Sequence record: OR515477.1
Strand: one strand, 5' to 3'
Length of the DNA: 64,000 bases
From: Escherichia phage Es2
The first letter of the stretch is position 1; each line of letters opens with the position of its first letter. The notes under the pieces are model-generated. The model made no database searches and was not told where the DNA came from. It saw nothing but the letters and a program-made list of their open reading frames with translations. Positions 2 to 21,828 of this stretch are shown piece by piece. The position numbers were made by a program, and so were the translations under genes.

Positions 2-451
2 ATTAATCTGATGATTAATGGTCCGGGTGGTTATGTTGATACTGCTGCACAGTTATCTAACTTAATTGCTAATTGCCGTGGAACAGTTATAGGGCATCTG
101 ATTGGTCCTAGTGCTTCTGCTTACTGCACAATTTTCCTATCCTGTCATGGGTGGGTAGTACATCCACATGCTACGCTAATGGGGCACACGTTCTCTGGCG
201 GATTCTGTGAGAAGGGTCAAGAAATTAAGAAAGCCTATGAATCTTACAACAAGTTCGTAGAAGATATGATGCTAGATGTCTACTATCCGTTCTTCTCAAT
301 AGACGAAATCGACGAGATGGTAAAAGACAACAAAAATATCTATCTAGATAGCAAAGAAATCCATAAGCGTATTGAAATCTTGGCAAAATATCGATCTGAG
401 CAATATAATAAAGCCCAGTTACCTCAATTAGAGGAGCACAGTGAAGAGTAA
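2..451 (+). CDS. ClpP-like serine protease, 5' end truncated by window edge
   Basis: Reading frame open to window start; INGPGG, GPSASA (active-site Ser), HPH and GGF..KGQEI segments align with the ClpP catalytic core; terminator follows. Confidence 0.5.
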   Translation: MNLMINGPGGYVDTAAQLSNLIANCRGTVIGHLIGPSASAYCTIFLSCHGWVVHPHATLMGHTFSGGFCEKGQEIKKAYESYNKFVEDMMLDVYYPFFSIDEIDEMVKDNKNIYLDSKEIHKRIEILAKYRSEQYNKAQLPQLEEHSEE

Positions 452-9122: not shown

Positions 9123-9307
9123 TGGAAACACTTTTTCTTTTAATGCTCGTAGGTTCGTTAGTAGTTATATTAGCACTCCTATTAATCTGTAATATTCTTA
9201 ATAATAAGAATTTAGGACTAAAGTGTGAGAACCAAATCCTTAATCGTGAACTTGAGCAATATAACCTAGCAGCCCATAAACTATTAGACAAACTGGAGAA
9301 TAAATAA
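9122..9307 (+). CDS. small membrane-anchored coiled-coil protein
   Basis: 61 aa; same architecture as the preceding ORF. Confidence 0.35.
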   Translation: METLFLLMLVGSLVVILALLLICNILNNKNLGLKCENQILNRELEQYNLAAHKLLDKLENK

Positions 9308-9906
9308 TGTTCACACAACAACCTATTCAAGTAGTACCAGACCATGAACTGAACACATGGGATTATAGCTTTAAAGATTTAACTGCTACTGTACAATTCA
9401 AATCTATGAAGCTAACATTTGCACACACTGACCTTAGAGCATGTAAAGATCTTGAAGGTAAGCTAGAAGATGCTCGTAAGATTTTTGGCAAGGCTCGCAT
9501 CCCGGCTGATAACCTGATTAATGCACTGATCGATGCAGGATACAAACTCGTGAAGGCTGAGGTTAACCGTCCTAGTACTCCAGTGACTATTAGAGATCCG
9601 TGGCAATCAGGGCCAATCGCAATGCTAAATAAATCATCGGATTTGCACAATGTTCCATGTGGCGGTACGCTGTCGTCTAATCAATCCTATCGAGTTGGGG
9701 AAGATTATGGGCCTTCTATACAGTTGAAACATACTCAAGAAGCTCTTGAGTCTGACATGAAAAGCGTAGCACCGGGGAACTCTGGAGTTTCTAGGAATTC
9801 TGTCTATACTGTTCATTTAAACAATCCTGGTAATCATGGAAGTTTAGAGGATGCTATTATGGAGGCGTTGGGAGCTGTCATTAATGAAGATAAGAGAGGT
9901 AATTAA
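9307..9906 (+). CDS. hypothetical early protein
   Basis: 199 aa ORF; ATGA overlap with upstream gene. Confidence 0.45.
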   Translation: MFTQQPIQVVPDHELNTWDYSFKDLTATVQFKSMKLTFAHTDLRACKDLEGKLEDARKIFGKARIPADNLINALIDAGYKLVKAEVNRPSTPVTIRDPWQSGPIAMLNKSSDLHNVPCGGTLSSNQSYRVGEDYGPSIQLKHTQEALESDMKSVAPGNSGVSRNSVYTVHLNNPGNHGSLEDAIMEALGAVINEDKRGN

Positions 9907-10253
9907 TGATATTTGGTAAAACAAAAATAGCCCCTGCTGGGGAAAATTTAATTACTCTTAGCCTCTACTATAAGGATGAAAATGTAGAAATAGAAACATT
10001 AGAGTATGTTCTTATAAATACTAATAAGCCTAAAATAGGAGAGTTACTTGGTATAATCTCTAATATCTCTGATAGGGAAGATATTCCAAGTATAACACCA
10101 AAGAATATAGCTCACTTAGCACAACAATTAGGAATCTTGTGGTATAAAGTAGATCTTCCAGCTAAAGAAAGAACCAAAGGAACCTTTGCAGAGATCGCAA
10201 GAAAACCTAAGTCAGAAAAGAAAGAAACAGGGGAGCAAGCGTCTGATATATGA
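9906..10253 (+). CDS. hypothetical early protein
   Basis: 115 aa ORF. Confidence 0.4.
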   Translation: MIFGKTKIAPAGENLITLSLYYKDENVEIETLEYVLINTNKPKIGELLGIISNISDREDIPSITPKNIAHLAQQLGILWYKVDLPAKERTKGTFAEIARKPKSEKKETGEQASDI

Positions 10254-10963
10254 TTAAAGAAGCCGAAAAATTAAAACGTCTCATCCAGCTAGCGCGGGGT
10301 GCTACACAAAAGAGTCTTTCCCAGCTAACTAATGAAGAAAAATATGCAGTAATGTTTTTAGGAGATCATTATCCTGCTAGGTGGGATAAAGGTAAGATCA
10401 AGTATGATCGTGATGCAAAACAAGTTGTTTGGTCAGGCTCATATGTAGAAGTGAATAAAGCATTAAAGGCTTTAGATCCTGAAGCAAAAGGTTTCTCTTC
10501 TAATGCTATTCATATTCTAATTGATGAAGATCTCCCAAGATTTAAGGAAGCATCATTTAAAGAAGCATTAGCTAGTGAAGATCTTATTCCTTTTAAACAC
10601 GGTAAGTATGCACATCTTCCACCACTAGAAAAAGAGAAACCTACTCTAGTTAAAGATGAAGTTTATCGTGGGATTGGCACAATGCTAGCGAGTTTGACTG
10701 TAGCTCTCCATAAAGATCTAGAGTTAACGCCCCTAGAAAACGCTGTGCATTTCATGTGCCATAAGTACGAGGATACATTTAAAGAGCTATGTAAGTCGCT
10801 AGGAATGCCAAGTTACACGATATTAAACTATGCTCCTGAATATACTAGAGCAGCTCGTGGAACTATGGATTACGATGATACAGGATCCACTGCTTCCTAT
10901 TTAGCAACTTATATCTACTTCGCATCCTTAGGTATCAAACTCAAATCCAAGAAGGAGGAATAA
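10250..10963 (+). CDS. hypothetical early protein
   Basis: 237 aa ORF, last gene before the repeat region. Confidence 0.45.
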   Translation: MIKEAEKLKRLIQLARGATQKSLSQLTNEEKYAVMFLGDHYPARWDKGKIKYDRDAKQVVWSGSYVEVNKALKALDPEAKGFSSNAIHILIDEDLPRFKEASFKEALASEDLIPFKHGKYAHLPPLEKEKPTLVKDEVYRGIGTMLASLTVALHKDLELTPLENAVHFMCHKYEDTFKELCKSLGMPSYTILNYAPEYTRAARGTMDYDDTGSTASYLATYIYFASLGIKLKSKKEE

Positions 10964-10980
10964 AAGTTAACAAAAAGTTC

Positions 10981-11010
10981 TTGCATTCTCATACCCAAAC
11001 ATGTTATAAT
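10981..11010 (+). promoter_or_regulatory. sigma70-type promoter upstream of non-coding transcript
   Basis: TTGCAT, 17 bp spacer, TATAAT. Confidence 0.45.
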
Positions 11011-11017
11011 AATCTCA

Positions 11018-11185
11018 TAGATTAACAACTACTCTAGTTGATTAACTCTAGGGGCGATGATTATTACACGAATGTCTCGTATAGCTTGCGGCCTAGCAAC
11101 AGCGGTATGACGGCATGAGTACTCACGTAATTAATCACGCGCCCACAGGAGAGACTCTCATGAAATTGGGGGTCTCTTTTTCTTT
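11018..11185 (+). ncRNA. candidate small structured RNA (about 165 nt)
   Basis: Bracketed by the promoter at 10981-11010 and a hairpin plus T-tract terminator at 11148-11185; long-range helix GGGGCG/TGATTA with TAATCA/CGCCC; only a 17-codon ORF with weak SD. Confidence 0.3.
11148..11185 (+). terminator. rho-independent terminator
   Basis: AGAGAC...GTCTCT stem followed by TTTTTCTTT. Confidence 0.45.
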
Positions 11186-11269
11186 ATATTATTTAAATAT
11201 TTTTAATGGCAATATCTGTGTTCAAGATGATACACCTGTTGCCGCTCATCTGCTAGGATGGCACAACAC

Positions 11270-11560
11270 TTTCTTCTAGACTCCTAAGTTTCTAGGAATA
11301 GTTGAGCACTAACTCTAGAGTTTACATTAAACTTTAAATCTGTTTCTCTAGTCAACTCAGGCGGTTTTCATATTCCTAGAAACTCTAGCAATAGGCGGTT
11401 AATACAGGGCGGTTTTAGGGAGGGCGGTTATTTCTAGAAGACATTTTTTGAAAACACATTTCTAGAAATTACTGTCGTATTTGCACACTGCATTTCTAGA
11501 AATTTATGGTCGGATTTGCACAAACGCCTAAGTTTTTAGGAACATATAATCTCTTGAAAA
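11270..11560. repeat. TTCTAGAA palindrome cluster and CCTAAGTTTYTAGGA repeats
   Basis: At least 4 copies of ATTTCTAGAA(A) and 4 copies of the ctRAGTTTYTAGRA element. Confidence 0.6.
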
Positions 11561-12080
11561 TGGCAGCATTATTTCGGGCCGAAGGCCCGTGATTGCCTGA
11601 GTTTTTAGAGCCACAAGAATTTTCACTTGTCAAGCTATTTTGCCCCATTTAGCAAATAAAATTTTACTTTATCTCCTCTAATCTCAAATTAACCCAAATC
11701 TTCTCAACTCTTCCCCAAAATACCCGCAAATCAGGTGCTCCGCACCAAACATGCGCCTCTCCCACAGTTCCCCCAAAATTTCTCTCGCTCTCTCAACTTC
11801 TCCCCAAACATACACAATCACACACCCTCCAATCGAAGCCACAAAAATCTTGTCGGATTCGCACATCTTAATCCTAGAAAAACCGTGTCGGATTTGCACA
11901 TACCCCACAGGATTCGAACGCAGTTCGAGATTGCTGGAGTTTTTAGGAAAATTCATTGTCGGATTCGCACACTATAAAAATTTTTCGGGTCGGATTTGCA
12001 CACTACCAAAAATTGTCGGATTCGCACATACACGCCCGCACGTAACACCCGTGGAGCAATGTCGGATTTGCACAAAAGCG
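11470..12080. repeat. dispersed 14-mer repeat GTCGGATT(T/C)GCACA, about 8 copies
   Basis: Copies near 11476, 11508, 11852, 11886, 11958, 11988, 12013 and 12058 with irregular spacing. Confidence 0.65.
11690..11830. repeat. C/A-rich low-complexity tract with CCCCAAAA-type repeats
   Basis: Strong strand compositional bias; repeated tCCCCAAAa units. Confidence 0.5.
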
Positions 12081-12099
12081 CAGGGCAATTGCCCTGCGC

Positions 12100-12310
12100 T
12101 AAATGAGAATAAAAATAAGAATCATTCTCATTTAGAAAGCGGAATGAGAATGATAATAATTCGCATTTAGAAAGCGAAATGAGAATCAATCTCATTTAAG
12201 AACGGAAACGAAAATTATTCAGGAAGTGAAACGATTCTCATTTAGAAAGTGGAATGATTCTCATTTAGAAAGTGGAATGCAAATGATAATGATTCGCATT
12301 TAAGAATGGA
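12100..12310. repeat. tandem array of ATTCTCATTTAGAAAG(Y)GGAATGA units with embedded inverted repeats
   Basis: About 5 direct repeat units plus AAATGAGAAT/ATTCTCATTT palindromic cores. Confidence 0.65.
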
Positions 12311-12333
12311 AGTGAGAAACACTGTTATTTAAG

Positions 12334-12415
12334 TTATCCACAGACTTATCAACAGCACGATTTGACTTGACAAAATTCTAGCCATTTTGAGGCGTTATCA
12401 ACAGACTTATCAACA
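12334..12415. promoter_or_regulatory. cluster of DnaA-box-like sites
   Basis: TTATCCACA (12334-12342) matches the DnaA box consensus TTATNCACA; TTATCAACA at 12346, 12395 and 12407. Confidence 0.45.
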
Positions 12416-12423
12416 GCTTATCC

Positions 12424-12443
12424 TACTGTATAAATATACAGTA
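12424..12443. promoter_or_regulatory. LexA (SOS) box-like palindrome
   Basis: TACTGTATAAATATACAGTA, CTGT-N8-ACAG, 18 of 20 match to TACTGTATATATATACAGTA. Confidence 0.45.
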
Positions 12444-12636
12444 TTCCTATGCAGTGAATAATTCTAATATACAGCTAAAACGCTCTCAAACGCATTCTAA
12501 CGCGTTTAATTTTGGTGGGGATACTAAAACACGGGCAAAATTGGAGGAGGCTTAGAAATTAGTTAGCTCGCTAACGATCACACAAGGCGACACGTAACAT
12601 CCTAACCATTAGCAGGCTAACCATCGCGGGCGCGGT

Positions 12637-12659
12637 CAAATGAGAATGATTCTCATTTG
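12637..12659. repeat. perfect 22 bp palindrome
   Basis: CAAATGAGAATGATTCTCATTTG, same core as the 12.1-12.3 kb array. Confidence 0.55.
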
Positions 12660-12809
12660 AGAATTGGGGGCACTTCCTGATAGTTGCGCCCCGTGATTAT
12701 TACAGTAGTGGGCAACCTTTACGCTTTGCCCATTCCCGCCACTCATCTTGATGTCTAGACTTGCGACGGCGTACTAAAAACCATTTATACCAGTGATTAA
12801 ACCATCGTT

Positions 12810-13013
12810 TCATAAATCCTCCTCCGGTAGTCGGTGCGTGATTTTTTCCTCCTCTCCGTAGGAATCCACTAAATGCTGATAATAACCATCGTGATCATAA
12901 ATCACTTTATCATATTCGCCACGCTCGACCGCTTGTCGGTTTTCCGGCGTATCTGGCACGTAAAAAACATCAACCATTGTACTGATTTTGGTTACAACAA
13001 TTTTATTGCTCAT
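12810..13013 (-). CDS. hypothetical small acidic protein (67 aa)
   Basis: RBS GGAG upstream of ATG; inside higher-GC cassette. Confidence 0.4.
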   Translation of the reverse strand: MSNKIVVTKISTMVDVFYVPDTPENRQAVERGEYDKVIYDHDGYYQHLVDSYGEEEKITHRLPEEDL

Positions 13014-13038
13014 AATAACGCTCCGTTATTATATAATC

Positions 13039-13383
13039 TCATTGTGCCACCTTTCGAAACGCTGTTTCAATACTTTCCGCAGTTGACTGAATATACGCGC
13101 CTTTCATGATCAGGCGCTCAGTGCATACCTTACGGAAGATATTAATAAAATCATCTTCATTTTCTGCAATTAACGCTTCACCCATAACCTGAACGTCACA
13201 AGATGCAAAGGTCAAAAATTGAAACGCTAGTTCACGGGCAACGACCTCATTGATTTTATAATGCGCCTTGCCCTCATAAATATTAATAACGCCCTTATAT
13301 GTTGGGGAAAGCTGATTTAAATAATTTGCTAATAATGCTGGGCGGCAATTAGCAATAAAACGATTGCCTTCATAAATAACCAT
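13039..13383 (-). CDS. hypothetical protein (114 aa)
   Basis: Start set at the ATG with RBS GGGAGG 6 nt upstream (MVIYEGNRF); ORF track start is 13398. Confidence 0.4.
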   Translation of the reverse strand: MVIYEGNRFIANCRPALLANYLNQLSPTYKGVINIYEGKAHYKINEVVARELAFQFLTFASCDVQVMGEALIAENEDDFINIFRKVCTERLIMKGAYIQSTAESIETAFRKVAQ

Positions 13384-13510
13384 TTGACAGCCTCCCAATT
13401 AGATAGCCAGATAATAACATAAAGATCCCCAATGAAAGGGGGTCATTTTTAAATAGGGTGGCGGTAAAACCGCCAGCCATTGCAAGGATGATAACAATAA
13501 CGCTTTTCAT
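13367..13510 (-). CDS. small two-segment hydrophobic peptide (47 aa), not in ORF track
   Basis: MKSVIVIILAMAGGFTATLF...LSLGIFMLLSGYLIG; ATGA overlap with upstream stop. Confidence 0.3.
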
Positions 13511-13719
13511 AGTACCCCACGAAACGCAGCGTAAAAGGTGGCAAAATGTTTAACTGTTTCAGCTATCACGTTGCCGCGCTTGTCAAATTTCTTTTCTGTA
13601 ACACGAAAGGCATTCTTATTACGTGCTACATATTCAATTTTACAATCTTCCCGCTCGAACGTGTTAACATCCACCAGCTTAAAGCCTTTCGAACGTGCAA
13701 GAGAAACATTGCGGATCAT
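13507..13719 (-). CDS. hypothetical basic protein (70 aa)
   Basis: RBS AGGAGAA upstream of ATG. Confidence 0.4.
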   Translation of the reverse strand: MIRNVSLARSKGFKLVDVNTFEREDCKIEYVARNKNAFRVTEKKFDKRGNVIAETVKHFATFYAAFRGVL

Positions 13720-13721
13720 TT

Positions 13722-13871
13722 TTATTCTCCTTTACTAGTCATGCAGCCCAGCAGATAAGAAAATGCAGCGATACCCGCGCCAATAATAACCGCGTGAACA
13801 CCGAAAGCTATTGCAAAAAGGGATAAAATAGCGCCCAAGATACCTGCTAGAATAGCTCGAAAAATAACCAT
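13722..13871 (-). CDS. small two-segment hydrophobic peptide (49 aa), not in ORF track
   Basis: MVIFRAILAGILGAILSLFAIAFGVHAVIIGAGIAAFSYLLG; RBS AGGAGA 7 nt upstream. Confidence 0.3.
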   Translation of the reverse strand: MVIFRAILAGILGAILSLFAIAFGVHAVIIGAGIAAFSYLLGCMTSKGE

Positions 13872-13917
13872 TTTCATTCTCCTAGTTTGCGGGGCGAAAG
13901 TAACGCCCCGTTATTAC

Positions 13918-14158
13918 TTACATTAAAACAATTTTTGCCGCTTGTTTTTTAGTACAGTGTTCCGCTTTCAGGGTATCCAGCAAAAAGCCGGCCGTTTGCT
14001 GATCGATTTTATCGGCGTTGTATAGTTCTTGGATGGTGTTATAAGTTTTAGCAATGCCGAACTCCTGCACCATTTCATGAATGATGGCGCGATTAGATAC
14101 CCAGCCTTGCGCGGTGAACAGATGACTAGCAGAAGAATAAGCAACCATTTTAAACCTC
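13918..14158 (-). CDS. hypothetical protein (80 aa)
   Basis: Start set at the ATG with RBS GGAGG upstream (MVAYSSASHLF); ORF track start is 14181. Confidence 0.4.
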
Positions 14159-14266
14159 CAAATTTTTGGGAAAATTTTCAACCGTCCTCAAACGGTGTAA
14201 AGGCATTATAACAAAAAAGGTCGCCATAAAAGGCGACCTTTACAAAACTTTACATTAGATTATTTA

Positions 14267-15277
14267 TTACTCGTTTTCGGTGTTAGTGGTAAAAGTAGAA
14301 ATATCGATACCTTTTACCATTTCATCAATCATTTCAGCGATGTTAAAACTTTGCACCATTTCCAACATTGCCGCTTCCATAGCTGCCCCTGCTACCGCTT
14401 TCGCTTTCTGGTTGCTTGGGGCATACTGGTCAACCGCTACGCTCAGCAGGTTGGCAATTACTACTCGACCGATAGGCGTATCAATATAACCTTTAATCAT
14501 GAACGGTGCTTTTTTAGCCGCTACTTTCGTAATTTGAGTCAGTGCAATTTTACCCGCTTCCAGTTTTGCAGCGTTTACAACGGCGGATTTATTAGCGGCA
14601 ACGATGTTAGCAATCTTGGTCATGGTATTTTTTCCTTTATTTTCAGTGATTTGAGTATTAACGCTTTGAGTGTTAGAATTTACAGCATGGTTTTCTACGC
14701 TGTCAATAATCTGATCTTCATCTTTCCAGAAAGAAAAACCAGCGCTTTCTATATCCCCATCATAAATATACGGGTATAGCTCCCGTGGTAACAAAAAATT
14801 ACCGTCGCCATCAAAAGCCATTATACCGGTATATTGAGATCCGTCGTTATCCGGCTTATACCATCCAGCGGGTAAATACTTCCAGATAACATCTAAAAAT
14901 CCCTCAATGCTAGAAAGTCCATTTATCAGATCAAGCCCAATAAGCTCAAAACCATTTATATTAAATGATTGACGGCCTGAATTGCTATGATACGCAACAA
15001 TAGTATTGCCCTGCGCAACAATAAAATCGGTATCCGGCCCCGCTCCCCTGCCCGTAAAGATATGGCAATCCCGATTATGTAAAACTAGCGTTGCCCCTTG
15101 CTTATATAAGGGTAGAAAACTATCCATATCATAGGCGTCATATTCATCAAAAAAGTTTTGATGAATAGTTTCAACCTTGTTAATAAAATGTTTAATGCTG
15201 GTTGACTTGCTACCGTCCAGCAGGTTACGCAATGCACCTTTTAAGACGGTTGCGTTATCTGGTTTATAAAGCCTCAT
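14267..15277 (-). CDS. hypothetical protein (336 aa), first gene of the inverted-repeat-flanked cassette
   Basis: Strong RBS GAGGAGG 7 nt upstream; Gly/Asp-rich N-terminal half and Ala/Lys-rich helical C-terminal half; no recognised catalytic motif. Confidence 0.5.
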   Translation of the reverse strand: MRLYKPDNATVLKGALRNLLDGSKSTSIKHFINKVETIHQNFFDEYDAYDMDSFLPLYKQGATLVLHNRDCHIFTGRGAGPDTDFIVAQGNTIVAYHSNSGRQSFNINGFELIGLDLINGLSSIEGFLDVIWKYLPAGWYKPDNDGSQYTGIMAFDGDGNFLLPRELYPYIYDGDIESAGFSFWKDEDQIIDSVENHAVNSNTQSVNTQITENKGKNTMTKIANIVAANKSAVVNAAKLEAGKIALTQITKVAAKKAPFMIKGYIDTPIGRVVIANLLSVAVDQYAPSNQKAKAVAGAAMEAAMLEMVQSFNIAEMIDEMVKGIDISTFTTNTENE

Positions 15278-15541
15278 TTGTTCGGCCTCCTCGTTAATCG
15301 GTGAGTGAATGATAAAGGTATTTTCTTTCTAGGGGCAAATATTATTTTACCTTTTTATTTTCTTTGCCTAACTCCTAGTTTTATGCTAATCGCGCAGCGG
15401 TACAGTAAAGAGCAAAACACGGCGAAGCCACCAGGGCGACGGGTGAAGGCTTTACTTTAATATTACCCCACTGCATTTAGCTCGTTAGAAAGCGATTTAG
15501 GCCGCTTAAAATTGATTGCAGTTGTTAACACTACCTTTTTA

Positions 15542-15561
15542 CCCTGTATATTTATACAGTA
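15542..15561. promoter_or_regulatory. LexA (SOS) box-like palindrome
   Basis: CTGTATATTTATACAG, CTGT-N8-ACAG. Confidence 0.45.
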
Positions 15562-15569
15562 GGATAACC

Positions 15570-15651
15570 TGTGGATAAGTCTGTGTAAAAGTCCTTATAT
15601 CGCCGCCTATCATGTCAAGTTATTTTACAAAATGTATAAGTCTGTGGATAA
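15570..15651. promoter_or_regulatory. DnaA-box-like sites
   Basis: TGTGGATAA at 15570-15578 and 15643-15651, reverse complement of TTATCCACA. Confidence 0.45.
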
Positions 15652-15841
15652 CTTAAATAATAGTGTTTCTCACTAACTAATTTATGCAGTTATTATATCG
15701 TAAAATATAGTTAGTTGGCTAATAGGATTTTAAAGTGATTATGAGTCCGCTAATTAAACCTGAAAAACTCATTAGCTAGTCTGCTAATCATTTTGATATA
15801 ATATAATAGAGATTAAATTAATAACATAAGGAAACAATTAG

Positions 15842-16360
15842 ATGCCTAAATATAAACATATAGATTATGACCTTTTTAATAGTTACTTTTATTATGATGA
15901 AACATCGTTATCATTTTTACGCTGGCGAGAAGATCATGCCATCGCTGGTGGTTTAAATGGTAATTATTGGCAAGTTGAATTATTAGATAAAGGACAATTC
16001 AAAGTACATAGAATTATTTTTTGTATAATGAATGGTGGTATAGATAGCGAGCTAATGATTGATCATATTGATCGTAACCCCCGTAATAATAACATTTGGA
16101 ATCTTCGCGCGGTTGATAGTTCCCAGAATAACTATAATAAGACTCCTAGTGAGTATGAAAACTATAAGCGTGCTAATGGTATCCCTAGAAACATTTACGT
16201 TAATAAAATTCGCCCCCGTGATAGTTTCGGGCGTGATTATTTAACTGCTCAAATTAAGAATCCTATTACTAACAAGCGTGTTAGTAAGTCTGGTTATGAT
16301 TTACAAGAGTTATTATTATGGCTTGAAGCTAAAAAAGCTGAATTCGGAATTGTCAATTAA
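15842..16360 (+). CDS. HNH homing endonuclease (HNH_3-type)
   Basis: IDHIDRNPRNNNIWNLR motif; sits in an AT-rich islet within the higher-GC region. Confidence 0.6.
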   Translation: MPKYKHIDYDLFNSYFYYDETSLSFLRWREDHAIAGGLNGNYWQVELLDKGQFKVHRIIFCIMNGGIDSELMIDHIDRNPRNNNIWNLRAVDSSQNNYNKTPSEYENYKRANGIPRNIYVNKIRPRDSFGRDYLTAQIKNPITNKRVSKSGYDLQELLLWLEAKKAEFGIVN

Positions 16361-16384
16361 TTTATTTTATAAATTAACTCGTTT

Positions 16385-16416
16385 AGTCTTGATTTTTAAA
16401 AGTCAAGACCTTTTTC
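16385..16416 (+). terminator. rho-independent terminator
   Basis: AGTCTTGA-loop-TCAAGAC followed by CTTTTT. Confidence 0.5.
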
Positions 16417-16585
16417 AACTATTTTTCAATTTTGCGGTTGTTAAATATTTGTTAAACCGAAAATAAGCCGCCTAAAACGCCCCAGAACGCGATGAAAGTT
16501 TTAGTCATGCCATTGCATTGCCTACCCTCGTTTATCGCTACCACGAGCTTTTTAGATTTTGTCAAGTAGGGGAAAGCAAATATAA

Positions 16586-16876
16586 ATGAAAAAATTACTT
16601 GCCTATCTGCTATGTTTTGTGGTATTCACGCGCCCGTTTCTTTTAATTTTAGTGTGCCGCGCCCTAGTCGCCGCACGCCGTCCGGTGAATCGTGTCTTTA
16701 CGTTTCTTTACAAAAATAAGGTTGCGCCATTTTCGGGAATCCCCTATTATTTATCACGTAGGGCGGCAATGACGAACTACACGGCGGGAAGTTTACCGCC
16801 ACGCTCTTTAAAAATTGGGTATATCTTAAAGCCTATCGGCGGTAAACTTATTCATTATAAGGAATCGACGATATGA
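16586..16876 (+). CDS. hypothetical protein (96 aa)
   Basis: ORF with weak RBS and unusual Arg-rich hydrophobic composition. Confidence 0.25.
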   Translation: MKKLLAYLLCFVVFTRPFLLILVCRALVAARRPVNRVFTFLYKNKVAPFSGIPYYLSRRAAMTNYTAGSLPPRSLKIGYILKPIGGKLIHYKESTI

Positions 16877-17076
16877 AACAAACGCTTTTGATAACTGGTA
16901 AACCAGCTAAAAAATTAGATGGTACTACTAAAAAATTGTTGACAGTAGCGCAAAGATCCATAAGATATAGATTCACGCAGTACAAGAAAGGCCGCCAGCA
17001 AGGTTTAGAAATGATCTGGCGAAATATTATGATTGACCTGAAAGAAAATCATAAAAAACTGCAAAAAATTGTTTGA
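16873..17076 (+). CDS. hypothetical basic protein (67 aa)
   Basis: RBS AAGGA upstream. Confidence 0.3.
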   Translation: MKQTLLITGKPAKKLDGTTKKLLTVAQRSIRYRFTQYKKGRQQGLEMIWRNIMIDLKENHKKLQKIV

Positions 17077-17306
17077 CACCCTAGCCGATAGGCTTTAAGA
17101 TGTACCCAGTTCGATGAGAGCGATAACTTGATACAATTTGACGGTCGGTGCTTACCATAATGCATCCCGCCCCCTAACTGGGATATAGCGGCCTGAGTGG
17201 AGTTCTTTAAATTGATTATAATGGCGAGCGGATTGTTACTTATTACCTGCTACTATTTTCTAGTAGGTAATGCGAAACAATCCCCTAAATAACTGGAGTT
17301 TATACT

Positions 17307-17558
17307 ATGCAAAACGTTACTAATGCGCCGAAAATTGGTCAATCCGTTTTTATCCCTTTCGTTACCAAAACGGATGAATTAACCGGAAAAGCCGAACGTA
17401 TTAAAGGTGCGGCGCTTATGCCGTTCGATACAATCGACGCGGTATACGCTGAAAATGAACGCAGTAACAACGGCAAGCCGATTTATAACGTTCGCGTTAA
17501 ATCCGGCGACGTTGTAAAGGTTGTTCAACGCAACGAAAAATGGGAAGCTGTACTGTAA
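17307..17558 (+). CDS. pre-early-type hypothetical protein (83 aa)
   Basis: Conserved TCCCCTAAAT leader plus GGAG SD; followed by perfect hairpin at 17574-17599. Confidence 0.45.
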   Translation: MQNVTNAPKIGQSVFIPFVTKTDELTGKAERIKGAALMPFDTIDAVYAENERSNNGKPIYNVRVKSGDVVKVVQRNEKWEAVL

Positions 17559-17656
17559 TCTAGTGTTAACTTTATATTCCCCTGAAATATGGGGAATATA
17601 ACGATTAACATTAGTTAATCATAATCCCTTAAATTAAACTAATAGGAGTTTATATC

Positions 17657-18064
17657 ATGACTAACGCAAAAACCGCAAAATTCGCATGGAATGAAGAAAA
17701 CACCCAAAAAGCTGTTACCATGTACCAGCAGTTAATCAACGAAAACGGTTTAGATTTCGCAAATAGTGACGGGCTGAAAGAGATTGCAAAAGCAGTAGGC
17801 GCGGCTTCTCCCGTATCCGTTCGCTCAAAATTGACCAGTGCAAAAGCCTACCAGAAAAGCGATAAGCCGCGTAAAGTTGGCGGCGGCAGTTCTGTACGCA
17901 AAGCGCATTATGTGCGTGTTATTGCTAAACATGCCATTGATTCCGGCATTATCAAAGACGCTGACGATCTGGCATCACTGGAAAGTGCAAAACTTGAAAC
18001 GCTGGACGCGGTAGCGCAATTGCTAGGCGTTGCCGATGAAGTGAAACAAGCCGCAGGCGAATAA
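17657..18064 (+). CDS. pre-early-type hypothetical protein (135 aa)
   Basis: AATCCCTTAAAT leader plus GGAG SD. Confidence 0.45.
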   Translation: MTNAKTAKFAWNEENTQKAVTMYQQLINENGLDFANSDGLKEIAKAVGAASPVSVRSKLTSAKAYQKSDKPRKVGGGSSVRKAHYVRVIAKHAIDSGIIKDADDLASLESAKLETLDAVAQLLGVADEVKQAAGE

Positions 18065-18153
18065 TAGTTATACATTGCCCTTCCTAGTGGGAGGGCAATA
18101 ATATAACTGTTTAGCGATAGTTATTTTCTTCCCTTAAATCAGGAGTTTTAAAA

Positions 18154-18351
18154 ATGATTTTCTTTCCTACTGAATCATTAATTTTAGGCTTGTTTATTAT
18201 GGCGGCCTCATTATTGTTCGCTTATTTTCAAAATGATTTAGATTCATATTATTTTAAACGTAAATCTAAGTTAGCAAAGCGTTTAGGTCTGATTTGTTTT
18301 ATTGCCGCCGTTGCTTGTGGTGTTAGTTCTAGCCTTATGCCTTTAAATTAA
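18154..18351 (+). CDS. small membrane protein (65 aa)
   Basis: TCCCTTAAAT leader; two hydrophobic segments. Confidence 0.4.
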   Translation: MIFFPTESLILGLFIMAASLLFAYFQNDLDSYYFKRKSKLAKRLGLICFIAAVACGVSSSLMPLN

Positions 18352-18447
18352 TGTTGCAAATTATAACGCCTATTATTCAAGGCGTTATATTTGGCAATAT
18401 TTGCCAATAACAAACGTTTTTTAATCCCTTTAATGGAGTTTATTACT

Positions 18448-20112
18448 ATGATTATTTCCGCAGAAAAACAAACCGTTATCCTGAAAATGGCCGCTGACTT
18501 TAATTTCTATGGTAAACGTCTGCGCGCCACTAAACTGGAGGTCTGCGACGATATATCAAAAGCGGTCTACGATACAACAAAACACTCGACCGCCATTTGT
18601 GATTGGCTGGAAGCAAATAAACCAGTTAAACCAAAAGCTGCAAAAGTAGCAAAAGCTATTAAAAACGATGAGCGCCCCGAAGCGGCTGGGATCGTTTCTA
18701 GCACGGTTGAACAGTGGGAAGTAAAACAAGGCAAACGCTTTATTATTACGTCGATTCAGAATAATACTTTCCCGCATAAAAACTTTTTGGCCTCGCTTGA
18801 ACAGTATGCTAAATACATCGGCGCTGATTTGCTTGTTTCTAAGTATATTTATAATAAAAACGGCTTCCAAAATGGTGAAGGTGCGGATGGAATCAAATAT
18901 GATTCCGCGTTCGATAAGTATATTTGCAGCAAAAACGTGTTTTTAAACAACCGCCGTTTTGCTTTCATGGCTGAAATTAACGTTTTGCCTACCGCAGATT
19001 ATCCGCTTTCTGGATTCGCTGAAACTGCAACGGCGCTTAATCTTGAAGGTCTGGCAATTGGTCACGCTAAAATCACCGCCGAAAGCGTGCCAGCTTTAAA
19101 AGGTGAAGTAGTACGCCGCATGTACTCAACCGGAACGGCAACGCTAAAAAACTACATTCAGCAGAAAGCAGGGCAAAAAGCGGAAGCGCTGCATAACTTC
19201 GGTGCGCTGATTGTTGAGTTCGACGAAGACGGTGAGTTTTTTGTACGCCAGCTTGAAACAATGGACGAAAGCGGGGTGTTTTATGATCTGAATGTTTGCG
19301 CTACTCCCGCAGGATGCTATGAAACATCGGGGCATGTTTTAGGTTTACAATATGGCGACATCCACGCAGAAAAATTAGATGATGATTGTGCCGTTGCGTC
19401 ATGGGCTGGCGAAAATAGCTTGCTTGATATTCTTAAACCAAAATATCAGTTTATCCATGACGTTCACGATTTTACATCTCGCAATCATCATAATCGTGCG
19501 TCCGGTGTATTCCTAGCGAAACAGTACGCCGCCGGACGTGATAAAGTTCTGGATGATCTTATCGATACGGGGCGCGTGCTGGAATCAATGGAACGTGATT
19601 TTAGTCAAACGATCATTGTTGAATCGAATCACGATTTGGCGCTATCCCGTTGGCTGGATGATCGTAATGCTAACATTAAAGACGATCCAGCAAACGCCGA
19701 ACTATATCACCGCCTGAATGCTGCAATTTACGCGGCAATCGGTGAACACGACGAAACGTTTAACGTGTTAGATTATGCGCTGCGCAAGGTTGCAGGTTGC
19801 GAGTTTAACGCCATTTTCCTAACAACTGACCAATCATTTAAAATTGCAGGCATCGAGTGTGGCGTACACGGTCACAACGGCATTAACGGAAGCCGTGGCA
19901 ATCCTAAACAGTTTAAGAAATTGGGCAAACTGAACACGGGGCATACGCATACGGCAAGCATTTACGGCGGGGTATACACCGCTGGCGTGGCTGGTAGTCT
20001 GGACATGGGTTACAACGTTGGCGCGTCAAGCTGGACGCAAACGCATTTAATTACCTATGCAAACGGTCAGCGCACTTTGATTGACTTTAAAAACGGTAAA
20101 TTCTTTGCGTAA
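18448..20112 (+). CDS. A1: A1-like pre-early protein with calcineurin-like metallophosphatase motifs
   Basis: 554 aa from the ATG at 18448 (T5 A1 about 556 aa, from memory); GDIH, GHNG and GHTH motifs; AATCCCTTTAAT leader. Confidence 0.55.
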   Translation: MIISAEKQTVILKMAADFNFYGKRLRATKLEVCDDISKAVYDTTKHSTAICDWLEANKPVKPKAAKVAKAIKNDERPEAAGIVSSTVEQWEVKQGKRFIITSIQNNTFPHKNFLASLEQYAKYIGADLLVSKYIYNKNGFQNGEGADGIKYDSAFDKYICSKNVFLNNRRFAFMAEINVLPTADYPLSGFAETATALNLEGLAIGHAKITAESVPALKGEVVRRMYSTGTATLKNYIQQKAGQKAEALHNFGALIVEFDEDGEFFVRQLETMDESGVFYDLNVCATPAGCYETSGHVLGLQYGDIHAEKLDDDCAVASWAGENSLLDILKPKYQFIHDVHDFTSRNHHNRASGVFLAKQYAAGRDKVLDDLIDTGRVLESMERDFSQTIIVESNHDLALSRWLDDRNANIKDDPANAELYHRLNAAIYAAIGEHDETFNVLDYALRKVAGCEFNAIFLTTDQSFKIAGIECGVHGHNGINGSRGNPKQFKKLGKLNTGHTHTASIYGGVYTAGVAGSLDMGYNVGASSWTQTHLITYANGQRTLIDFKNGKFFA

Positions 20113-20166
20113 TTAAATTATTACCCTAGCGGCTTGAAATACAGCCGCTATTATAGGAGTCAAAAA

Positions 20167-20424
20167 ATGAAAGTTACATTACCCAAAACATTAGACGAAA
20201 AAGCGTTTATTTCCCCCGATGAAATGGAATCCGATAAAGTTTACAGCTTCGGGCCTATCCTAGCCGCCAAAACTAATACTGATGGAATTATTACAGTCGA
20301 TTATCGTGATAATGATATTGTTCCCTTTGACGATGATGACGCTTTTTACGAGTGGTTAAGCGATAATAATTTACCCGTAAGTGGTGAATTAACGCCGTAT
20401 CAGATGCAAATCATTATCAAATAA
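20167..20424 (+). CDS. pre-early-type hypothetical acidic protein (85 aa)
   Basis: Start at ATG with RBS GGAG upstream (MKVTLPK). Confidence 0.4.
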   Translation: MKVTLPKTLDEKAFISPDEMESDKVYSFGPILAAKTNTDGIITVDYRDNDIVPFDDDDAFYEWLSDNNLPVSGELTPYQMQIIIK

Positions 20425-20463
20425 TTTAAATCCCCTTATTAAACTAATTGGAGTTTTATAACT

Positions 20464-20856
20464 ATGAAAAAGCAAAATATCCCATTCGACCGCGCTCAGT
20501 CCTCAATTGTTCTGGTTTATTCCAACGGCGAACGTTACCACGTCGAGGCGGGGCACGTTATTGATGACCTATTAGATTTCAATGACGCTTTGCAGGTTAC
20601 TACCTTTGCATATACGCAGGGCAAACTAACCAGCCATATTAAAGCAAAAGGCGTTTATGTTGACACGGTGAAACAAGAAACGATTATCATCGACGCCGTA
20701 AAATCCGGCCTAGCCTTTGCAGTTGTCGCGCCTTGCCTCGCTTGCCTTGATGATCAATTGATTAGTGCAAAGGTCTACACATGTGCGGGGATTCGTTCTA
20801 GCGTATCCGGTGAGGATGTTAGTTTTATCGCTGATGCGTTGGCTTATGGTCTTTAA
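20464..20856 (+). CDS. pre-early-type hypothetical protein (130 aa), possible A2-like
   Basis: AATCCCCTTATTAAA leader plus GGAG SD; A2 assignment is a guess from size and position only. Confidence 0.35.
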   Translation: MKKQNIPFDRAQSSIVLVYSNGERYHVEAGHVIDDLLDFNDALQVTTFAYTQGKLTSHIKAKGVYVDTVKQETIIIDAVKSGLAFAVVAPCLACLDDQLISAKVYTCAGIRSSVSGEDVSFIADALAYGL

Positions 20857-20936
20857 TAGTTGATTTATTATTGCCCGCTTATAAATAGCGGGTAATGCTG
20901 AATTAATCTAATCCCTTAAATGGAGAACGTAACAAA

Positions 20937-21671
20937 ATGAGTCAAGTTAAAACGAATATTACCCGCTCTTTCCCGCATATTTCCCGCGTTATGATTTGGG
21001 ATCTGGACGGCACTATCATTAATTCTTTCCATCGTGTAGCGCCTTGTTTTGATAGCGAGGGCAATTTAGATTTAAATAAATATAAAAATGAAGCCTGCAA
21101 ACATCATTTAATAATGCAGGATTCATTATTGCCATTAGTTGAATATATGCGCCAGTGTATGAATGACGCTAACACGTTAAACATTATTTGCACCGCTCGA
21201 CTGATGAGCAAGTCAGATTATTATTTCTTGCGTAAACAAGGATTGCGGGGGCGTGGAAATAGCAATATCCGCGTGTTTTCCCGCGATACCCTGCACAAAT
21301 ACTTTAAAGCTGATAAAGTTAGCGAGATATACCACAGTAAGGACGCAGTTTATAAATCTTATTATTTTGAATTATTTAAACAATTATATCCGAACGCTGA
21401 TTTTACAATGATTGATGATCATAAAGGCGTGTTAGCGGCGGCGGCATCATACGGATTTAAAACGCTGGACGCACAAGCCGTTAACGATATTCTATCAATC
21501 GGTGTTACATTGATTGGTGAAACCTTTATTGATGAATCGCTCGACGATGATAATGATTATCAGTTCCTAGCAGACCGCCTGCAATTATGTTGGGAAGGTA
21601 TGACCGAGGAAGAACGCGCAGAATATAGTTGCAGTCCTCAACAGTACATCGAGAAATTAAAAGTTGCATAA
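20937..21671 (+). CDS. dmp: 5'-deoxyribonucleotidase (HAD superfamily), Dmp-like
   Basis: 244 aa, same length as T5 Dmp (from memory); WDLDGTI HAD motif I; AATCCCTTAAAT leader. Confidence 0.65.
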   Translation: MSQVKTNITRSFPHISRVMIWDLDGTIINSFHRVAPCFDSEGNLDLNKYKNEACKHHLIMQDSLLPLVEYMRQCMNDANTLNIICTARLMSKSDYYFLRKQGLRGRGNSNIRVFSRDTLHKYFKADKVSEIYHSKDAVYKSYYFELFKQLYPNADFTMIDDHKGVLAAAASYGFKTLDAQAVNDILSIGVTLIGETFIDESLDDDNDYQFLADRLQLCWEGMTEEERAEYSCSPQQYIEKLKVA

Positions 21672-21828
21672 TAATTAAAGTTGAAATAGTCACGGTGTGT
21701 AATGATAACATGCCGTGACTATTAGTCTGCTAAGTACCGGGCGGTAATGAGACTCATTCTCATCTGGTGGGCCACTGGACACACCTCCATGTGTAATCTT
21801 ATGAAATTTGGCAAAAAGGTAATTAGCG

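Follow-up and report, generated by a model that had tools for sequence, protein, structure and literature searches.

The DNA analysed here (the window, 64,000 nt of Escherichia phage Es2, OR515477.1) belongs to a T5-like phage (Demerecviridae) and is presented in reversed orientation. Between its convergent pre-early and early ORFs lies a repeat-dense, non-coding interval (10,964-12,809), and the genes A1, A2 and dmp are located in the same terminal repeat as this repeat region (Table 1). Positions 11,215-12,540 are collinear with T5 NC_005859 9,310-10,615, with 80-98% identity per 50 columns. NC_005859 annotates that T5 segment as 'injection stop signal (iss)', which bears out the correspondence with the T5 injection stop region that the initial annotation had proposed, and AY587007 annotates each of its repeats. 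Of the AY587007 features, only direct repeat D copy 9 and palindrome C have no counterpart in the window. The T5 iss stretch is called Repeat Region 3 (Wang 2005, AY587007; Davison 2020, 10.1101/866236).

Table 1. Features of the Es2 repeat region and associated loci, in window coordinates (a dot marks features with no strand assigned).
Feature	Position	Strand	Remarks
Conserved block, unique side	11215..11282	.	Outside terminal repeat; identity 0.92 per position, 26 relatives
Unique-side repeat cluster	11283..11541	.	CCTAAGTTTYTAGGA, GGCGGTT, TTCTAGAA, direct repeat D copies 8 and 7
Direct repeat D copies 8, 7	11473-11487, 11509-11522		Outside terminal repeat
GC hairpin GGGCCGAAGGCCC	11576..11588		C(UUCG)G loop on - strand; 20 bp outside terminal-repeat end
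Right boundary of long direct terminal repeat, CCTGAGTTTTTA / GAGCCACA	11596..11616	.	Putative, at 11608/11609 by homology
C/A-rich, G-poor tract, CCCCAAA x3	11640..11850	+	Includes T5 direct repeat A copies 2-3
Direct repeat D copies 6 to 1, TGTCGGATTYGCACA	11851..12074	+	One orientation, within terminal repeat
24-bp perfect palindrome AGCGCAGGGCAATTGCCCTGCGCT	12077..12100	.	T5 palindrome J, by homology to T5
AT-rich ATTCTCATTTAGAAAG array	12101..12310	.	T5 direct repeat C copies 1-4 and palindromes E-I
IRC'-spacer-IRD' module	12311..12441	+	Identity 0.90-0.99; DnaA-type box pairs and palindrome D
DnaA-type box pair TTATCCACAgacTTATCAACA	12334-12354		
DnaA-type box pair TTATCAACAgacTTATCAACA	12395-12415		
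Palindrome D TACTGTATAAATATACAGTA	12424..12443	.	LexA SOS-box consensus at 19/20 positions; identity 0.96
25-bp palindrome, direct-repeat-C type, TCAAATGAGAATgATTCTCATTTGA	12636..12660	.	Far side of DnaA/LexA module
Inverted partner module (T5 IRC-spacer-IRD, Repeat Region 2)	15544..15674	-	Divergent pre-early promoter region
A2, DNA-binding protein	17657-18064	+	phrog_1725, 8e-52
A1, DNA transfer protein	18391-20112	+	phrog_1745, 5e-245

On the unique side, positions 11232-11281 are identical to T5 at 50/50 positions. In the adjoining cluster the repeat units are conserved at 0.81-1.00, against 0.55 in the 11298-11359 spacer. The element TTCTAGAA has three exact copies (11432, 11460 and 11494), with only five copies in the 64-kb window, and near-copies occur as TTCTAGAC at 11274 and TCCTAGAA at 11374 and 11872; the palindromes reported initially are thus present, but not in the four or more copies then counted. 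The four CCTAAGTTTYTAGGA elements of that account resolve into two exact copies (11283 and 11527) and three variants with 3 mismatches, at 11374 (- strand), 11596 and 11934. Both elements are conserved in T5, where they are unannotated. GGCGGTT occurs four times at 11360-11429, and the unique DNA also holds CCTAAGT repeats. On the inner side, the C/A-rich tract had also been recognized, and it corresponds to T5 direct repeat A, copies 2-3 of which lie at 11703-11721 and 11683-11699; the tract has 37% C, 31% A and 6% G (GC skew -0.58), and its identity among relatives is 0.86-0.94. All five repeat classes described at the outset lie where they had been placed and exceed chance, some counts being slightly off. 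The DnaA box pairs, the LexA-like palindrome, the GGCGGTT repeats, the 25-bp palindrome and the GC hairpin had escaped notice.

The 14-mer GTCGGATTYGCACA, first seen as about eight irregularly spaced copies, is T5 direct repeat D; the stretch 11474-12074 holds seven exact copies and an eighth with a single mismatch, at spacings of 35, 343, 35, 71, 31, 26 and 46 bp. At up to 2 mismatches, 0.47 copies are expected per 64 kb, and the observed count was reached in 0/100 shuffles. Among the 26 relatives, in which repeat units generally are more conserved than spacers, direct repeat D units reach 0.95 against 0.82 for their spacers (p=2e-14). In the Klebsiella Sugarlandvirus IME260, 11-12 copies flank the repeat boundary (~6 outside, 5-6 inside). 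A reading of the repeat as a weak DnaA box was rejected: ATTTGCACA fits 8/9 positions, yet in the IME260 variants GAAATGCACA and GATATGCACA it is the non-DnaA half that survives and the DnaA-like half that is lost. Since the IME260 variants GTCGGAAATGCACAT and GTCGGATATGCACAT retain the outer halves, a specific 15-bp protein site is favoured over a DnaA box.

Next to the copies inside the terminal repeat lies palindrome J. The perfect palindrome of the initial annotation is real, but it measures 24 bp and not 22 bp. It holds the homologue of the T5 major 7.9% single-strand nick site (GCGCAGGG, 12078-12085); on the - strand a terminator-like TTTTGTG follows the palindrome, whose hairpin is seen in predicted folds. 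The tandem array with embedded inverted repeats, likewise reported before, is the direct-repeat-C array with palindromes E-I (210 bp, ~30% GC). It contains three exact copies of ATTCTCATTTAGAAAG and one with 1 mismatch, and consists of 7-1-7 palindromes of the type TGAGAAT-N-ATTCTCA; over 12113-12279, Tandem Repeats Finder gave periods of 23, 29 and 35, numerous inverted repeats lie inside the array, and folding as a single strand gives z=-8.1. The array differs in copy number between phages (+29 bp relative to T5, -46 bp in Spc35). Within it, at ~12126, falls the counterpart of the shear point of T5 first-step transfer (AY 9618). The related 25-bp palindrome at 12636-12660 is absent from T5 and has a coverage of ~0.70 in relatives. 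Fur-family operators are also of 7-1-7 type (TGATAATnATTATCA). The direct-repeat-C palindromes resemble them (TGAGAATnATTCTCA) with one symmetric base per half-site different, three units of the region being within 2 mismatches of the Fur 7-1-7 motif. Fur boxes in the array were nevertheless rejected, as every site in 11200-12700 has more than 3 mismatches to the 19-bp consensus GATAATGATAATCATTATC; with just the 7-1-7 resemblance left, Fur is kept as a lead only. The sole perfect Fur-type 7-1-7 sequence is in the dmp coding sequence, at 21548.

The IRC'-spacer-IRD' module carries DnaA-type boxes, that is, 9-mers equal or near to TTWTNCACA, in head-to-tail pairs 12 bp apart from start to start. 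One of the four boxes of the region has the strict consensus and three have one mismatch; window-wide, strict boxes are not enriched (8 found, 7.9 expected). The initial suggestion of host-protein sites holds for the presence of DnaA-type boxes but not for IHF, whose sites are not enriched window-wide (7 matches, 6 expected), the one match to the IHF consensus in the region not being conserved. The LexA (SOS) operator consensus of Enterobacterales is TACTG(TA)5CAGTA. Only 0.01 matches within 3 mismatches are expected per 64 kb, and palindrome D has 1 mismatch with a perfect CTGT-N8-ACAG core. This LexA-like core is conserved in seven phages of three genera (Tequintavirus, Epseptimavirus and Sugarlandvirus). 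No mention of the LexA-like nature of palindrome D was found in the searchable literature; the match is possibly an unreported detail, although an earlier mention may exist. The module pairs with an inverted partner at 3.1 kb distance, through arms of 39 nt at 97% and 77 nt at 77%. The partner has its own DnaA-type pairs (15570-15590 and 15631-15651) and a second LexA-like box (15542-15561).

The core of the region is present in 26/26 close relatives at 0.84-0.95 per-position identity, whereas the flanking genes, which are mosaic among these phages, are found in only 15-58%. The match extends to 581 phage records. IME260 carries direct repeat D, direct-repeat-C-type palindromes and GGGCGGTT, as well as CCTAAGT-type repeats, DnaA pairs and palindrome D. 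The earlier idea that the repeat families could be lineage-specific is contradicted by this distribution. At 14 metagenomic loci with distant A1 homologues (36-47% identity), neither these motifs nor a comparable non-coding region was found within 10 kb; these homologues were set aside as an uninformative comparison, as they may not come from T5-like phages.

The terminal repeat, as placed by homology, would span 11609-21781 (10,173 bp), with the left terminus at 21781. Its right end lies inside the repeat region, a point that had been missed. The annotated left-terminal-repeat ends of T5 (NC 10219, AY 10139), Spc35 (9573) and phiR2-01 (9901) all map to 11608/11609, some of these record boundaries perhaps having been copied from T5 by homology; saus111K annotates another boundary. 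The IME260 repeat end is ~21 nt further out. At least eight IMG/VR records also terminate at 11608/11609, stopping ~244 nt short of direct repeat D copy 6. That 11608/11609 is the physical genome terminus is therefore a probable assignment by homology only. About 400 bp of the region (11,200-11,608) fall past both the stop point and the end of the terminal repeat, so the whole region cannot be the stop signal.

Taken together, homology, anatomy and conservation identify the repeat region as very probably the Es2 copy of T5 Repeat Region 3, carrying the cis-acting iss. Repeat Region 3 is the untranslated junction at which the ~10-kb direct terminal repeat, the DNA of first-step transfer, meets the remainder of the genome. 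A stop of transfer near this point is known for T5 from the literature, and a transfer stop has been reported for T5 and BF23. By homology, Es2 would also perform two-step transfer and have its own repeat boundary here. The region is real, conserved and already described; the window adds another sequence of a region that has been described and annotated before, so the finding itself is not new. The same architecture was described in 25 T5-like phages (Davison 2020, 10.1101/866236). Papers of 2023-2026 present the iss as non-coding, rich in repeats and palindromes, and of unknown mechanism, and the BF23 paper notes that functional studies are lacking.

The roles that can be proposed for individual sub-elements are tentative. 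The most likely mechanism would be that, once ~9.6 kb are in the cell, a nucleoprotein complex forms on the DnaA/LexA module and the direct-repeat-C array, is possibly bridged to the inverted twin, and arrests transfer until released by the pre-early proteins A1 and A2. In T5, A1 and A2 are trans-acting genes required for transfer restart. For direct repeat D and the hairpin, which straddle the repeat end, a role in end formation, packaging or restart, exerted by way of a phage-encoded protein, would be more probable. In vitro, T5-type DNA is ejected completely into FhuA proteoliposomes (Davison 2020, 10.1101/866236), which implies a host factor. A more specific and rather improbable version is that the T5-type stop region acts as a host-repressor trap. 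With two DnaA-type box pairs and a near-perfect LexA-type site in each inverted module, LexA would join DnaA in the complex assembled on the DNA that enters first. Direct repeat D, whose 15-mers lie on both sides of the repeat end in Markadamsvirinae as well as in Sugarlandvirus, would bind a phage protein, either A2 or a terminase subunit, that ties transfer restart or packaging to the junction. LexA cleavage is an unlikely release trigger, since growth of T5-type phages on recA hosts is generally reported.

A packaging or end-formation signal in part of the region is quite possible, if short of probable, and would be compatible with an iss further inside the repeat. It would take in direct repeat D, the conserved hairpin, the CCTGAGTTTTTAGAGCCACA motif and the unique-side repeats, where a terminase or end-forming nuclease would recognise concatemers and cut them at the right end of the terminal repeat. 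As a general rule, the last DNA packaged by a phage is the first ejected; since the left end enters first, the right end should be packaged first. The coincidence of the T5, Spc35 and phiR2-01 annotated ends at one nucleotide, inside a conserved motif, fits this proposal, with the reservations on record boundaries given above. The nearby GC hairpin is 100% conserved among the 26 relatives and is replaced by a different hairpin at the same place in IME260. Direct repeat D flanks the boundary in both lineages (two copies outside and six inside in Es2), and the constraint on its units and the 15-bp protein site suggested by the IME260 variants point the same way. Terminase binding at the boundary is putative, however, and the left terminus at 21781 has neither the boundary motif nor direct repeat D. 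A terminase cut motif common to both repeat ends, AGTTTTTAGAGCCACA, was rejected, as it is lacking at 21781.

A mainly transcriptional element is unlikely. It would terminate the pre-early and early transcripts that converge here, hold a promoter under LexA control, or give rise to a non-coding RNA, for which the candidate runs on the - strand from ~12454 to the palindrome-J terminator. The convergence of the flanking genes and the terminator-like palindrome J (RNA fold of 12072-12200, z=-9.8), on which weak sRNA-model matches are anchored, are consistent with it. However, every Rfam match was far under the gathering score, so that no known RNA family was found at that score, and the tRNA search gave no tRNAs. 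Another candidate small RNA lies at 11010-11180 (+). A promoter-like TTGAGA-17-TAGAAT lies at 12489-12461 (-), directly upstream of the LexA-like box, and the twin module has a -10-like hexamer inside its LexA-like box; but neither T5 nor other relatives keep the -35 element of the 12489-12461 site, the count of promoter-like sites departs from shuffles by no more than ~1.5 sd, and 1.3 kb of conserved repeats is more than terminators need. According to older reports, transfer needs no metabolic energy, which disfavours a LexA-controlled promoter driving second-step entry by transcription. An oriC-like or iteron replication origin is even less likely: the paired DnaA-type boxes, the AT-rich array as unwinding element and the eight iteron-like 14-mers in the same orientation are suggestive, but strict DnaA boxes are not enriched, the direct repeat D spacing is irregular, electron microscopy puts the T5 origins near the genome centre and replication genes are silent during first-step transfer (Davison 2020, 10.1101/866236). 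Almost no weight can be given to the region being coding after all. Mechanical ORFs do reach 139 aa (11751-12170), and 'hypothetical protein' genes are annotated under the match in several GenBank records. Yet this ORF and four other mechanical ORFs in the region had no Pfam match, indels of 1, 2, 10, 10 and 29 nt relative to T5 break every frame, the curated T5 records have no gene here, and conservation tracks repeat units, not codons. The absence of Pfam matches and the frame-breaking indels agree with the initial view of a non-coding, DNA-level element.

The two-step DNA transfer of T5, with its stop at ~8%, has been known since the 1960s, and Heusterspreute in 1987 and Davison in 2015 are reportedly the sources for its injection stop signal region. 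The Es2 copy of Repeat Region 3 offers experimental handles: the repeat units, and not the spacers, are constrained; the terminal-repeat end lies inside the region, amid direct-repeat-D units and adjoining a conserved hairpin; and one conserved palindrome, palindrome D, is a candidate site matching the textbook LexA sequence. The T5 engineering tools of 2021 make these handles testable.

Compared with known systems, the arrangement at the repeat end recalls T7, in which short direct repeats also flank the direct terminal repeat at the concatemer junction. The T7 terminal repeat is 160 bp against ~10 kb here, sequences and repeat lengths differ, and to our knowledge there is no homology between the T7 flanking arrays and the Es2 region. 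Unlike oriC and DnaA-regulated promoters, the Es2 modules form an inverted pair 3.1 kb apart. Palindrome D differs from known LexA operators in that it lies in the first-entering DNA of a virulent phage and not at a host SOS gene or prophage switch, and it is a candidate site that is not demonstrably over a conserved promoter. With respect to T5, Es2 has one extra 29-bp unit in the direct-repeat-C array, lacks direct repeat D copy 9, has one mismatch in copy 8 and shows two 10-bp indels near copies 5-6. Its second DnaA pair contains two copies of TTATCAACA, one of which is TTATCCCCA in T5, and palindrome C with its terminator is replaced by the 25-bp direct-repeat-C-type palindrome. The named elements otherwise follow in the same order as in T5: IRD'-spacer-IRC' with the DnaA pairs, palindrome D, direct repeat C with palindromes E-I, palindrome J, direct repeat D copies 1-8, direct repeat A copies 2-3 and the repeat end. 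As in T5, they lie at the inner end of the terminal repeat and run into unique DNA, with the inverted twin near the pre-early promoters.

Judged by its sequence, the window is a T5-like phage and runs in the opposite orientation to T5. With the 1.6-kb stretch as query, megablast matched 457 phage records and blastn 581, nearly all of them Demerecviridae. Window positions 11,215-12,540 are collinear with positions 9,310-10,615 of T5 (NC_005859), overlapping the interval annotated there as "injection stop signal (iss)" (9,140-10,149); in that record the left terminal repeat ends at 10,219 and the major single-strand interruption lies at 9,748/9,749. The T5 record AY587007 annotates the repeats individually, and its features, transferred to the window through the alignment, account for most of the families described in the initial annotation (see table). 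"Repeat Region 3" and its inverted twin (IRC-spacer-IRD) have been described for 25 T5-like phages (Davison, bioRxiv 10.1101/866236), and the twin was also found here. Genes A1, A2 and dmp are situated within the same terminal repeat. The region is almost certainly the counterpart of the T5 injection-stop-signal region, or Repeat Region 3, a feature already known and annotated in T5. The correspondence first proposed from position was borne out, and that interpretation was essentially right save for lineage specificity.

Features in and around the repeat region (window coordinates)
Feature	Position	Remark
Direct repeat D, copies 1-8	11,474-12,074	GTCGGATTYGCACA units; AY587007 mapping
Direct repeat C, copies 1-4, and palindromes E-I		ATTCTCATTTAGAAAG array; AY587007 mapping
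Palindrome J with 7.9% nick	12,077-12,100	24-bp palindrome; AY587007 mapping
Direct repeat A, copies 2-3		within C/A tract; AY587007 mapping
IRD', IRC', direct repeat B	12,334-12,354; 12,395-12,415	paired DnaA-type boxes; AY587007 mapping
TTCTAGAA, CCTAAGTTTYTAGGA elements		outside terminal repeat; conserved in T5 sequence, absent from AY587007 features
Palindrome D	12,424-12,443	TACTGTATAAATATACAGTA; putative LexA site
LexA-like copy in twin module	15,542-15,561	putative LexA site
Twin IRC-spacer-IRD	15,544-15,674	
GGCGGTT family	11,360-11,429	four copies in 70 bp
GC hairpin	11,576-11,588	GGGCCGAAGGCCC
Outlying direct-repeat-D motif	9,636-9,649	within 199-aa ORF 9,307-9,906
Intrinsic terminator	11,147-11,180	14-bp stem
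Fur-type 7-1-7 palindrome	21,548-21,562	TGATAATGATTATCA; within dmp coding sequence
Direct-repeat-C-type palindrome	21,748-21,762	TGAGACTCATTCTCA

All of the repeat families listed initially are present. They lie in a non-coding interval (10,964-12,809) on which the flanking genes converge, since a plus-strand ORF ends at 10,963 and a minus-strand ORF occupies 12,810-13,013. The GTCGGATTYGCACA unit occurs about eight times, as reported (seven exact copies and one with 1 mismatch), for a chance expectation of 0.47 per 64 kb. The C/A-rich tract covers 211 bp (37% C, 6% G, three CCCCAAA), and the ATTCTCATTTAGAAAG units make up an array, both tandem and inverted, whose periods are 23, 29 and 35. 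The perfect palindrome also exists, but it is longer than the 22 bp first given. The TTCTAGAA and CCTAAGTTTYTAGGA elements were found with fewer exact copies than the four claimed for each: TTCTAGAA has three in 70 bp (five in the entire window) plus three near-copies, and CCTAAGTTTYTAGGA two plus three variants with 3 mismatches. The GGCGGTT family, missing from the initial list, was found too in T5 and in Klebsiella phage IME260. CTAG is about 5-fold enriched in 11,200-11,620 (10 per 420 bp vs 307 per 64 kb) because several repeat families include it. The outlying direct-repeat-D motif (1 mismatch) keeps its distance to the main cluster in most scanned relatives.

Other readings of the interval were a coding sequence, a replication origin, and a transcriptional element or small RNA. 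The longest mechanical ORFs of the region had no Pfam match and the alignment to T5 contains indels of 1, 2, 10, 10 and 29 nt, so the region is considered non-coding, in agreement with the absence of credible ORFs noted at first. Against a transcriptional element or small RNA, Rfam gave no match above threshold, and promoter-like sites were no more numerous than in shuffles. In the interval separating the repeat region from the last early gene, at 10,980-11,184 (+), there may be a small RNA: TTGCAT-18-TATAAT with TGn resembles a promoter and precedes a strongly structured RNA of about 150 nt (z=-5.2) and an intrinsic terminator. Only about half of the relatives have this candidate, which has no Rfam match.

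In T5, Spc35 and phiR2-01, the annotated end of the repeat maps to one nucleotide, 11,608/11,609, in CCTGAGTTTTTA/GAGCCACA. At least 8 IMG/VR records terminate at the same site, some 244 nt ahead of copy 6 of direct repeat D, and the repeat end of IME260 lies about 21 nt farther out. Since window position 21,781 aligns with T5 position 1, the terminal repeat would, by homology, span 11,609-21,781 (10,173 bp), and about 400 bp of the region (11,200-11,608) would thus be unique DNA beyond it. The first-step-transfer shear point of T5 (AY 9,618) maps to about 12,126, within the direct-repeat-C array. At 21,781-21,782, the position homologous to the left terminus of T5, the sequence continues uninterrupted into other phage DNA; therefore the source assembly appears to hold a single collapsed repeat copy or to be circularly permuted.

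Conservation was compared among 26 non-redundant relatives retrieved via the A1 protein. The core (11,200-12,500) is present in 26/26, with a per-position identity of 0.84-0.95; flanking coding DNA at 9,900-11,100 occurs in only 15-58% of them, and 12,700-12,800 in only 21%. Direct-repeat-D units are more conserved than their intervening spacers (0.95 vs 0.82, p=2e-14). Outside the terminal repeat, a 68-bp block (11,215-11,282) is conserved among relatives at an identity of 0.92 and matches T5 at 50/50 positions. The GC hairpin, which lies outside the terminal repeat at 20 bp from its end and reads C(UUCG)G on the minus strand, is invariant in the 26 relatives, and at that spot IME260 has a different hairpin, which suggests selection on structure rather than sequence. 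Distant A1 homologues (36-47% identity) had none of these features.

Palindrome D matches the LexA SOS-box consensus at 19/20 positions, with an expectation of 0.01 per window at up to 3 mismatches. The LexA-like core is kept in T5 (both modules), Spc35, saus111K, misterkot, phiR2-01 (two copies) and IME260, and the boxes are conserved across three genera. LexA and SOS are not mentioned by Davison (2020), and among the papers covered by full-text searches none links LexA with T5-like first-step DNA; the priority of these putative sites is uncertain. Further palindromes occur near the left terminus. The perfect Fur-type palindrome is found in 23/26 relatives, and the direct-repeat-C-type one, 20-33 bp off the terminus, in about 10/26 and not in T5; this family therefore stands near both terminal-repeat ends in some phages.

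In the literature to 2026, the iss is described as non-coding and rich in repeats, with an unknown mode of action. Davison proposed that DnaA boxes are held by membrane-bound DnaA and that the DNA is cut free by A1/A2 (10.1101/866236). The preferred reading is a composite junction, in which one part would be the stop and another would carry phage-protein sites, an assignment of roles that is tentative and rather doubtful. The best stop candidates would be the DnaA/LexA-type module and the adjoining palindrome array. These are situated immediately inside the shear point, and their inverted twin is conserved. For the direct-repeat-D units, hairpin and boundary motif, the better explanation may be that they are recognised by a phage protein whose action on the repeat end would serve packaging, end formation or restart.

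The same families occur in IME260, which belongs to a separate lineage, Sugarlandvirus; they are therefore not lineage-specific, contrary to the initial suggestion. This phage carries 11-12 direct-repeat-D-type units (GTCGGAWWTGCACAT) at 889-1591, about six outside and five or six inside its annotated repeat boundary, several at 27-bp spacing. It also keeps direct-repeat-C-type units, GGGCGGTT and CCTAAGT-type repeats, DnaA pairs and palindrome D.
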